This document shows positions 23,378 to 26,416 of a stretch of DNA of 64,000 nucleotides, one piece after another. A model generated the notes under the pieces. It was not told where the DNA came from, searched no databases, and saw nothing but the letters and a program-made list of their open reading frames with translations. The stretch is from Escherichia coli (GTDB taxonomy: Bacteria > Pseudomonadota > Gammaproteobacteria > Enterobacterales > Enterobacteriaceae): the NCBI RefSeq assembly GCF_003018255.1, contig NZ_CP027440.1; one strand, written 5' to 3'. How positions within the stretch are numbered: position 1 is the stretch's first letter; each line of letters begins with the position of its first letter. The translations under genes and the position numbers were made by a program.

Positions 23378-23468
23378 GACAACTCCGGCAGGATACTAAA
23401 GGCCGCAAGTGTAACGCGAATCACGCGGCGGGCAAATATCCGAACGACTGGAGCGAAGATAAAGCAAA

Positions 23469-23497
23469 GTAAAAAGCCTCGCATTCGACGAGGCTTT
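23469..23497 (-). terminator. cspC intrinsic terminator
   Basis: Minus-strand RNA forms gcctcg / cgaggc stem followed by uuuuu. Confidence 0.7.
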
Positions 23498-23542
23498 ATA
23501 GCGAGATTGAAGCGTATTCACACTTCAGATCAGTGGATTCGA

Positions 23543-23752
23543 TCAGATAGCTGTTACGTTAACAGCTGCCGGACCTTTCTGACCGTCCTGAATTTCGAAC
23601 TCAACGTTCTGACCTTCAGCCAGAGTTTTGAAACCATTACCCTGGATAGCAGAGAAGTGTACGAACACGTCTTTGCTGCCATCAGCCGGAGTAATGAAGC
23701 CAAAACCTTTAGACTCGTTGAACCACTTAACCTGACCTTTAATCTTTGCCAT
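23543..23752 (-). CDS. cspC: Cold-shock-domain protein CspC, 69 aa
   Basis: ORF 23543..23752 minus; [20 protein letters not shown] with RNP motifs. Confidence 0.96.
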
Positions 23753-23764
23753 TTGAAAAATTCC

Positions 23765-23908
23765 TTAGATTGTTTTCTTCGCCCGCAGGCATAACATAGA
23801 TAAAACTGACACATTACTGCATGAGGCACCAATATAAGGCTCGGCAGAGAAGCGGTATTCAACGTCAACGTGTTTACTCAGGACTTCTTTACTGAAAATG
23901 CCACACAT
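23765..23908 (-). CDS. yobF: Small stress-induced protein YobF, 47 aa (co-transcribed with cspC)
   Basis: Manual minus-strand translation [47 protein letters not shown]; ends 12 nt before cspC start; below ORF-track cut-off. Confidence 0.85.
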
Positions 23909-24532
23909 AAACAGAACTGTACCTCGTTTAACCCGAAATCTGTTATCACATACAACGTTAATTATGGCAAGCCATTTTTAAACATGTCTCGATCAGACGC
24001 ACAAATCTCGATACGTCTTCCACTTTTTTTGCACACTTATGCAACGGAATACGCGCCGATATATCATTGTGCTTAACCTTGCCAGTTCAGGCAGATACTT
24101 AAACTGACGTATTTTCTAACATAGTTCAATAAGTTCAGTTGTTCCAGGCCAGTGGGAGAAGTTATTACATAGTGCGTGCAATATCACATTTTCTGCTATG
24201 CAATGAATAAAAAGTTATATCACTTTTTCTCATAAAACAGTCAGTTAACGGCTATCGATCACCCCAAAGAGAAGTCAATCGCCAAAGGTATTGTAAATTT
24301 AAAATAAGAAAAATTGATGAATGCGCAAAAAAATCAAGAGAGAAACGTTTCGCTAATAAATAATACCACGCTTAATCACAAATCCGATGTAAACATCCTA
24401 ATAAATTAATGGGCTAAATATCTTTTTCTGATATCCCGTTACGCAAATAAATAATATGATAATTATTTGAAGTCAGACCAGAGTTTTAATTTGAAGCAGT
24501 TGCACCATGACAGTGCGTATAATCAGGATGAA

Positions 24533-24564
24533 TTGAGTAACCCTTCAACGACGGGGTTACTCAA
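24533..24564 (-). terminator. Perfect 11-bp stem hairpin 14 nt downstream of yebO stop (probable yebO terminator; U-tract weak)
   Basis: ttgagtaaccc-(10 nt loop)-gggttactcaa. Confidence 0.4.
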
Positions 24565-24577
24565 GATTGAGGAAGGA

Positions 24578-24865
24578 TTATCGTTCGGCGACCAGACGAA
24601 TAATATCTTCGTCTTCAACCGATTTTTGACTCTCAACGGTCTTTTTATCTGCTTTCTCAGGTTCGTTTGCTTCGCACAAACGACGTAACAGAGCATTTTG
24701 ACGTTTTTGCTGATCCAGCAACGCCTCAAGCAGTTCAATCTGTTCGTTAGTCCGTGAACTGGCACGATTGATAAAAAACCACAAGATAAGCCCGATAAAA
24801 AGAACCACCACCGATACAACCAAAGACGCAATGTTCATCACGCCTGAATTTACAACTTCGTTCAT
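24578..24865 (-). CDS. yebO: Small membrane protein YebO, 95 aa
   Basis: ORF 24578..24865 minus; N-terminal TM helix then charged tail. Confidence 0.9.
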   Translation of the reverse strand: MNEVVNSGVMNIASLVVSVVVLFIGLILWFFINRASSRTNEQIELLEALLDQQKRQNALLRRLCEANEPEKADKKTVESQKSVEDEDIIRLVAER

Positions 24866-24939
24866 TTCACCACCTCTGAGTAGAGGCGCTATTCTACCAC
24901 TGCTGGAGAGGAAGAAAATCTAGTGCTGAAAAAATGATA

Positions 24940-25083
24940 TCACCACGGGATAAACTGGTTAATGGCACAAATTCCGCTGAAAAATTGTACATCCTGATCG
25001 CACATCATGTTGAATACCTGCGCCCAAAGCAGCAAGCAAGCCAACACCACGACAACCAGAACGACCCATCGAAACTTTTTCAC
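24940..25083 (-). CDS. mgrB: PhoQ-inhibiting small membrane protein MgrB, 47 aa, GTG start
   Basis: Manual minus-strand translation [47 protein letters not shown] from GTG at 25081-25083; below ORF-track cut-off. Confidence 0.85.
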
Positions 25084-25124
25084 TCCAATCTCCGTTTCAC
25101 CTACCTTATGTCATTAAACTAGCA

Positions 25125-25155
25125 TGCGTTAGTTAAACAGCGCCTAACTATGTCG
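25125..25155 (-). promoter_or_regulatory. Candidate PhoP box in mgrB promoter
   Basis: Minus strand reads TGTTTAactaacgcatgcTAGTTTAat upstream of mgrB; spacing not verified against consensus. Confidence 0.35.
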
Positions 25156-25241
25156 ATATTCGTGCTTTTTCAGAATGAGTCGCTTGCTTCAGCGCATATT
25201 GCCGCTACGATTAAGCGAACATAAAAAGAGAAGAGGTTGTA

Positions 25242-25481
25242 ATGCGATTCATCATTCGCACAGTTATGCTGATAGCACTGGTATGGATAGGATTATTACT
25301 CAGCGGATATGGCGTTTTGATTGGAAGCAAAGGGAATGCCGCGGGATTAGGTTTGCAATGTACCTATCTGACCGCCAGAGGCACCAGCACGGTACAATAC
25401 CTGCACACTAAAAGTGGTTTTCTGGGGATAACAGATTGCCCGTTGTTACGTAAAAGCAATATTGTGGTCGATAATGGTTAA
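25242..25481 (+). CDS. yobH: Small membrane protein YobH, 79 aa
   Basis: ORF 25242..25481; signal/TM-like N-terminus; divergent from mgrB. Confidence 0.85.
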   Translation: MRFIIRTVMLIALVWIGLLLSGYGVLIGSKGNAAGLGLQCTYLTARGTSTVQYLHTKSGFLGITDCPLLRKSNIVVDNG

Positions 25482-25624: not shown

Positions 25625-26416
25625 TCAGAACGGATAGTCGTGATAACCCATTTGGGCAGAAATTTTGCGCGCCGCGGTATGCAACATTGCGACATATTCC
25701 TGTAAACGCTCTTCAGAGAAACGCAACGTCGGGAAGGAGATGCTAAGACCGGCAATGACCACGCCAAAGCGATCAAATACCGGAACCGCAATGCATCGCA
25801 GCCCTTCTTCCTGCTCTTCGTTATCTTCGCCATACCCCTGCTCACGCACCTGGTCCAGAACGGGTAATAACGCTTCTGTACTGGTGATGGTCCGCTCGGT
25901 ACTGCGTTTATACTCCACGCCCTCAAGAATTTGCTTCACTTCATCGCGATCGCGCCATGCCAGCAGTACCTTACCAATCGCGGTGCTGTACAGCGGATTA
26001 CGACGCCCAATCCGTGAATACATGCGCAAATTGTACATAGAGTCAATTTTGTGAATGTAAACAATACTGTCTTCGTCCAGTGCGCCGAGGTGGATAGTTT
26101 CTTTGGTCAGGCGGGAGATCTCACGCATCTGGATATCTGCGCTACGAATTAAATCGACGTTTTGTAACGCGCGAGCGCCCAGTTCAAACAATTTCAGGGT
26201 CAGGGAATATTTCTCCGACTCCCCTTCCTGCGCCACATAACCTAAGGTTTTCATGGTCTGTAAAAAGCGATAAACGGTGCTTTTTGACATCATGACGCGC
26301 TGCGACAGCTCGGTTATCCCTATTTCGCGCTCTTCACCCAGCGCCTGCAAAATGCCAAAAACTTTTAGCACGGAAGATACAGAATCAGGCTGTTTATCCA
26401 GATCTGCGTTAGCCAT
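25625..26416 (-). CDS. kdgR: IclR-family transcriptional repressor KdgR, 263 aa
   Basis: ORF 25625..26416 minus; N-terminal HTH and IclR effector domain. Confidence 0.94.
   Translation of the reverse strand: MANADLDKQPDSVSSVLKVFGILQALGEEREIGITELSQRVMMSKSTVYRFLQTMKTLGYVAQEGESEKYSLTLKLFELGARALQNVDLIRSADIQMREISRLTKETIHLGALDEDSIVYIHKIDSMYNLRMYSRIGRRNPLYSTAIGKVLLAWRDRDEVKQILEGVEYKRSTERTITSTEALLPVLDQVREQGYGEDNEEQEEGLRCIAVPVFDRFGVVIAGLSISFPTLRFSEERLQEYVAMLHTAARKISAQMGYHDYPF

Follow-up and report, generated by a model that had tools for sequence, protein, structure and literature searches.

The compact control region between mgrB and yobH in Escherichia coli: PhoP box, extended -10 and conservation across Enterobacteriaceae

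Genes at the mgrB locus

The window, i.e., the whole stretch of 64,000 nucleotides that was analyzed, is E. coli chromosome. Of 5426 complete E. coli genomes, 5415 had a match covering 80% or more of a 3.1-kb query around mgrB and yobH, the best one at 99.8% identity. Between positions 24860 and 25250 the sequence is the same as that of K-12 MG1655 at 390 of 391 bases, the sole difference being located at 25172. The list of open reading frames (ORFs) and two RefSeq annotations give the gene order cspC (23543–23752, minus strand), yobF (23765–23908, minus), yebO (24578–24865, minus), mgrB (24940–25083, minus), yobH (25242–25481, plus) and kdgR (25625–26416, minus). The RefSeq product names were consistent for mgrB, yobH, yebO and yobF, that of the mgrB sequence being “PhoP/PhoQ regulator MgrB.”

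An earlier note made from the sequence alone had recognized a GTG-start mgrB, a divergent yobH starting 158 bp away and a group of four small proteins within 2 kb, and all of this was borne out. The mgrB ORF codes for 47 aa between a GTG start and a TGA stop (24942–24940), scores 66.3 bits with PF13998 (cut-off 27) and has E. coli proteins with 100% identity. YobH (79 aa) reaches 145.8 bits with PF13996 (cut-off 27), YebO (95 aa) 122.8 bits with PF13974 and YobF 105 bits with the Pfam family DUF2627/YobF, so that each of the four is far above the cut-off of its own family. They span 1717 bp (23765 to 25481), and exactly 158 bp separate the divergent start codons of mgrB and yobH. The N-terminal 19-mer is strongly hydrophobic in MgrB, YobH and YebO (the Kyte-Doolittle maximum of MgrB over 19 residues is 2.74, at residues 6–24) and is not so in YobF, a protein that has been described as membrane-associated (PMC11429745).

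No Rfam family was matched inside 24866–25241. On the far side of yebO, the cspA thermoregulator family RF01766 was found at 23468–23928 (minus strand; 139.7 bits vs. a gathering score of 78), and since this match covers cspC and the entire yobF ORF, yobF lies within the structured 5′ region of cspC. This position may be linked to the induction of YobF that has been reported at the post-transcriptional level; in low Mg2+ it is translational only, with neither transcriptional induction nor PhoQ-dependent reporter activity (PMC11429745). Two matches to the PhoP consensus, each with two mismatches, were seen upstream of yobF at 23968–23984 and 24379–24395 (both minus; TGTTTAAAAATGGCTTG and TGTTTACATCGGATTTG), and they are probably due to chance given that yobF has no PhoQ-dependent promoter activity (PMC11429745).

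PhoP box and extended -10 of mgrB

On the minus strand, the sequence 5′ of mgrB reads GACA TAGTTA GGCGC TGTTTA ACTAACGCA TG C TAGTTT AATGA CATAAGGTAGGTGAAACGGAGATTGGA GTG. A PhoP box is defined as a direct repeat of (T/G)GTTTA with a 5-nt spacer, i.e., with an 11-bp phase (PMC3335776; PMC8355897). The region upstream of mgrB holds a single (T/G)GTTTA-like repeat in this phase, TAGTTA-GGCGC-TGTTTA (25150–25134, minus), which matches 10 of the 12 consensus positions. The distal half-site TAGTTA (25145–25150) is 5 nt upstream of the promoter-proximal half-site TGTTTA (25134–25139), and the latter is 12 nt from the -10 hexamer TAGTTT (25116–25121, minus) in direct orientation. The distances permitted between a direct box and the -10 are 12 nt or 21–23 nt (PMC3335776).

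The orthologous promoter of Salmonella, that of yobG (= mgrB), was studied by S1 mapping and DNase footprinting, which gave a single start dependent on PhoP and low Mg2+ (Zwir 2012; PMC3335776). Its box, ACAGTTACTCCTGGTTTAA, has direct orientation, and 12 nt separate it from the -10, TAATTT; the +1 follows the -10 at a distance of 5 nt, and the leader has a length of 26 nt (PMC3335776, Tables 1 and 2). The E. coli repeat TAGTTA-GGCGC-TGTTTA is orthologous to CAGTTA-CTCCT-GGTTTA of Salmonella, TAGTTA corresponding to CAGTTA and TGTTTA to the GGTTTA of the footprinted box. Both promoters have in common the direct orientation, the 12 nt to a TA(A/G)TTT -10 and, farther upstream, a second sequence that has reverse orientation. 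The mgtA, phoP, slyB and yrbL promoters (architecture I) are also similar in having a single direct box over the -35 position, 11–12 nt from the -10, and class II-type activation. However, their boxes are nearer to the consensus (e.g., TGGTTTATCGTTGGTTTAA), whereas the first half-site of mgrB is nAGTTA and not (T/G)GTTTA, which corresponds to submotif S2 in Zwir's scheme.

By sequence comparison the PhoP box, the -10 and the leader are identical to those of K-12 MG1655, and relative to the K-12 PmgrB of Lippa and Goulian (2009, PMC2789325) the coding sequence is identical as well, the window carrying a strain-level allele. PhoP binding, the dependence on Mg2+ and PhoQ and the feedback of MgrB on PhoQ are taken here from the literature on that sequence. 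The K-12 promoter is PhoP-regulated and MgrB represses PhoQ (PMC2789325), the E. coli mgrB promoter has served as a positive control for PhoP binding in electrophoretic mobility shift assays (EMSA; PMC8355897), induction of mgrB in low Mg2+ was found to be PhoQ-dependent by RNA-seq and with a reporter (PMC11429745), and PmgrB is the standard reporter for low-Mg2+, PhoQ-dependent expression (PMC2789325; PMC11429745; PMC1964800). Given the identity across box, -10 and leader, the proposal of the earlier note that mgrB is expressed under PhoP control stands. The primary mapping of the E. coli mgrB promoter is reportedly to be found in Kato 1999 and Minagawa 2003.

To follow the region across Enterobacteriaceae, an MgrB alignment was used to collect 80 loci from genera of the family, with each species represented once. 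The divergent yobH was present next to mgrB in 78 of the 80 species; in Pseudescherichia vulneris and Escherichia sp. ESNIH1 it was missing from the 1.5 kb upstream of mgrB. One species, Enterobacter sp. JUb54, has an mgrB–yobH gap of 284 bp and was set aside, leaving a set of 78 sequences (the window plus 77 species) in which this gap measures 156–168 bp. The gap was also aligned over 24 genera (alignment A3). Anatomy, spacing and conservation of the promoter could be observed directly in the 78 sequences. The invariant columns of A3 spell GT.A in the distal half-site (G97, T98 and A100), GTTTA in the proximal half-site, TG.TA...T, the GGAG ribosome-binding site and the GTG start. The distal half-site ends in GTTA in 72/78 sequences, with three others shifted by a 1-nt insertion and three carrying GTGA, and the proximal one is (G/T)GTTTA in 73/78, always 12 nt upstream of the -10 hexamer. 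All 78 carry the string nGTTTA-N9-TG-N-hexamer where it is expected, preceded by nnGTTA at a distance of 5 nt, and therefore the distance from box to hexamer is always exactly 12 nt.

The -10 itself is of the extended type. The hexamer TAGTTT is preceded by TG (25123–25124, minus; T121 and G122, invariant in A3), giving TGcTAGTTT at 25124–25116 (minus), and it aligns with the TAATTT that is the -10 of Salmonella (Zwir 2012). Within the hexamer, A3 keeps T124, A125 and T129 while the middle bases vary. TAACCT, the form of most genera, is found in 32/78 sequences, TAATTT (Salmonella) in 9/78 and TAGTTT (E. coli) in 2/78, and TGn always precedes it. What is conserved is the T, the A, the final T and the TG in front of them, and not GTTTA, which marks the string TAGTTTA as an extended -10 and not as a PhoP half-site.

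This bears on the pairing put forward in the earlier note, in which PhoP would bind TGTTTA together with TAGTTTA at about 25125–25155. Both strings do exist on the minus strand (25139–25134 and 25121–25115), and AGTTTA matches (T/G)GTTTA at five of six positions. However, the two hexamers start 19 nt apart (25139 vs. 25120) and not 11 as in a PhoP box (PMC3335776; PMC8355897), a spacing that does not fit a PhoP dimer, and the second string follows the pattern of a -10 across species. The interval 25125–25155 contains the correctly spaced and conserved partner TAGTTA, within TAGTTA-GGCGC-TGTTTA, that had gone unnamed, whereas TAGTTTA falls outside of it. We thus regard binding to the pair TGTTTA and TAGTTTA as highly improbable, and take TAGTTA-GGCGC-TGTTTA as the box.

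As a bare motif match, this box does not go beyond what chance would give. Allowing up to two mismatches to KGTTTA-N5-KGTTTA, the window had 23 matches against 15.0 ± 3.9 expected from shuffles. With a matrix derived from 24 activation boxes footprinted in Salmonella (the yobG rows omitted), i.e., the kind of scan suggested beforehand as a check, the site at 25134–25150 scored 8.86 bits and ranked 44th among ca. 128,000 positions of the 64-kb window, which is not significant alone. The low prominence in both scans reflects the degeneracy of the motif and is not evidence against function. The case for the mgrB box rests on conservation and literature, and its positional invariance across the species compared is, from the alignments, beyond chance. 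Among matrix matches of at least 6 bits in direct orientation, 60 of 85 cluster 55–64 nt upstream of the mgrB start codon, and a smaller cluster of 13 in reverse orientation is found at 90–99 nt. A PhoP-like site at 25210–25228 (minus) had a higher score than the mgrB box (10.15 vs. 8.86 bits); it is specific to E. coli, its position is not kept across species, and we have treated it as a chance match.

From homology to the S1-mapped yobG start, we infer that mgrB transcription most likely begins at about 25110 (within 25109–25111, minus, with the C at 25110 as the best candidate), where CATAAGG of E. coli aligns with CATAAGA of Salmonella. The leader would then be ca. 27 nt long, vs. 26 nt in Salmonella. 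A generic sigma-70 scan recovered neither this promoter nor that of yobH. The Shine-Dalgarno sequence GGAG (25090–25093, minus) is nearly untouched in A3 (G152, G153 and G155 invariant, A154 nearly so), and 73/78 sequences have GGAG 5–12 nt ahead of the start codon. The start codon (25081–25083, minus) is GTG in 77 of the 78 sequences and TTG in the remaining one, with no ATG among them. Such a uniformly non-ATG start suggests selection for weak translation initiation of a feedback inhibitor.

The predicted yobH promoter and the conserved block next to it

yobH, which in Salmonella is an invasion factor, is transcribed in the opposite direction from the other end of the gap. On the plus strand we found a predicted -35, TTGCTT (25184–25189), whose TTG never varies in A3 (columns C59, A60 and A61, read on the opposite strand), and a predicted -10, TACGAT (25206–25211), in which the invariant columns A34 and T38 correspond to T6 and A2 of the hexamer. 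Among the 74 sequences in which the pattern was found, TTGnnn with a 16-nt spacer was present in 63, and most had a TAnnnT-like -10 hexamer. Judged by these alignments, yobH appears to have a conserved weak sigma-70 promoter of its own, TTGCTT-16 nt-TACGAT (25184–25211, plus).

Directly adjoining the predicted -35 there is a conserved block, TTT..GAAT (25166–25176). The sole mismatch to K-12 (25172, plus; T here and C in K-12) is located within this TTTTTC(A/G)GAAT block. The block lies within the 19-mer CTTTTTCAGAATGAGTCGC (25165–25183, plus), a degenerate homolog of the second PhoP box of Salmonella yobG; that box, GTTTTTAGGAATGATTCAC, is the weaker of the two, has reverse orientation and was footprinted by PhoP-P, the Salmonella promoter belonging to architecture II (PMC3335776). 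The E. coli version is far more degenerate. It scores -4.75 bits with the matrix, against ca. 10 bits for the near-identical Salmonella-type 19-mer found at three Citrobacter loci, and the median over species is 3.1 bits. Owing to this degeneracy the E. coli mgrB promoter may behave as a single-box, architecture I-like promoter, and the role of the second box in E. coli is uncertain.

The earlier note had implied that both divergent promoters respond to Mg2+, and the same 19-mer could in principle serve such a bidirectional control, with PhoP bound at 25165–25183 activating yobH too and both genes responding to low Mg2+. The Salmonella sequence is footprinted by PhoP-P and an orientation that is reverse for mgrB is direct for yobH (PMC3335776); from the end of the 19-mer to the predicted yobH -10 there are 23 nt, which fits architecture III (21–23 nt, as in rstA and ompX); TTT..GAAT is conserved across genera; and a differential-binding peak of RpoD in Salmonella has been assigned to mgrB/yobH (PMC11770342). 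However, SprB activates yobH in Salmonella, and PhoP/PhoQ does not seem to regulate the gene there (PMC6726612; PMC5013294), which leaves the implied Mg2+ response of the yobH side without support. As a box, the E. coli sequence is poor (TTTTTC-N5-GAGTCG), its best conserved part, GAAT, would be spacer sequence, the second half-site CATnnA does not resemble GTTTA, and the yobH promoter from which the spacing is counted is itself a prediction. We therefore consider PhoP activation of yobH unlikely.

A somewhat better, still tentative reading is that 25166–25176 is an UP element or the site of some other activator acting on the weak promoter of yobH (in Salmonella, SprB) and not a PhoP site. A Salmonella yobH fusion placed in E. 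coli had low or undetectable activity without SprB and was switched on by SprB alone (PMC6726612), and ChIP-seq identified STM1841 (yobH) as a direct SprB target (PMC5013294). The block adjoins the -35, where class I activators and the alpha-CTD bind, and its pattern of conservation is unlike that of PhoP half-sites. Against this, there is no candidate factor for the genera that lack SPI-1, and the Salmonella sequence was footprinted by PhoP-P, although the two readings can hold together. RcsB was considered as such a factor and rejected: its box, TN(G/A)GAN4TC(T/C)NA (PMC7913699), had a full match in none of the 78 intergenic regions on either strand, the nearest being a half-site-like TAGGA. 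If TTT..GAAT were a shared operator that couples yobH to PhoP or to another conserved activator in all Enterobacteriaceae, this would explain why the mgrB–yobH gap is kept at 156–168 bp, but we give this idea little credence.

Transcription into yebO and the reading of the locus

On the other side of mgrB, yebO is found downstream in all 80 species, and the spacer between them is 70–77 nt long in 75 of them. In the window this spacer has 74 nt (24866–24939, minus); it holds no intrinsic terminator 3′ of mgrB, and its folding was not better than that of shuffled sequences (z = -0.98). With no terminator after mgrB, transcription would continue into yebO. A polycistronic mgrB–yebO mRNA has in fact been reported to be enriched with the small RNA CyaR, of which it is a MAPS and RIL-seq target (PMC5861431). 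We found candidate pairings of the CyaR anti-Shine-Dalgarno loop (CCACCUCCUUA) with the 5′ end of the mgrB leader (25109–25097; -13.6 kcal/mol), with the yebO ribosome-binding site (24877–24862; -16.0 kcal/mol) and with the interior of yebO (24822–24799; -22.6 kcal/mol), all on the minus strand; these energies were not better than those of shuffled controls, the best one being reached by 10% of the shuffles.

The spacer also contains an extended -10-like sequence, TGgTAGAAT (24899–24891, minus). The corresponding TGnTA(A/G)AAT is located 23–26 nt upstream of the yebO ATG in 63/81 sequences, and this, together with the constant length of the spacer, suggests that yebO has a predicted promoter of its own besides read-through from PmgrB. 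A match of the sigma-70 scan, TTAACC-17-TATCAT (24962–24934, minus), lacks conservation downstream of the mgrB stop codon and was dropped as a yebO promoter. Since yobF has no transcriptional induction in low Mg2+ and yobH, from the Salmonella work, seems not to be under PhoP control, the four-gene “cluster” of the earlier note is better seen as a set of neighbors than as one PhoP unit, the co-transcription of yebO and mgrB excepted.

Taken as a whole, we are highly confident that 24866–25241 comprises E. coli mgrB and a compact 158-bp control region shared with yobH, in which a PhoP box drives an extended -10 promoter of mgrB. This promoter would be activator-dependent, without a usable -35. 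A dimer of phosphorylated PhoP would bind head-to-tail to TAGTTA-GGCGC-TGTTTA (25150–25134, minus) at the -35 position and, 12 nt from the extended -10 TGcTAGTTT, would recruit RNA polymerase in a class II-type manner (architecture I/II of Zwir et al., 2012). Starting around 25110, the transcript would carry a leader of ca. 27 nt, with GGAG as its ribosome-binding site and GTG as a weak start codon, and would run on into yebO. The membrane peptide MgrB of 47 aa inhibits PhoQ and closes a negative feedback loop. yobH would be transcribed on the opposite strand from its own weak sigma-70 promoter.

That mgrB has a PhoP box is already textbook knowledge, PmgrB being a routine reporter of PhoQ/PhoP. 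The practical value of this analysis is a correct base-level map of the region in the window, in which both genuine half-sites, the leader and the extended -10 are placed. It also illustrates that a string resembling GTTTA may turn out to be a -10 hexamer instead of a PhoP half-site. The comparative additions are modest: the invariant spacing of box and hexamer with its TG in 78 sequences, the non-ATG start in 78/78, the constrained lengths of the mgrB–yobH and mgrB–yebO spacers and the apparent own promoters of yobH and yebO. The main use of such a map is in reading changes upstream of mgrB, whether promoter mutations or IS insertions, in colistin-resistant Klebsiella and further members of the family.
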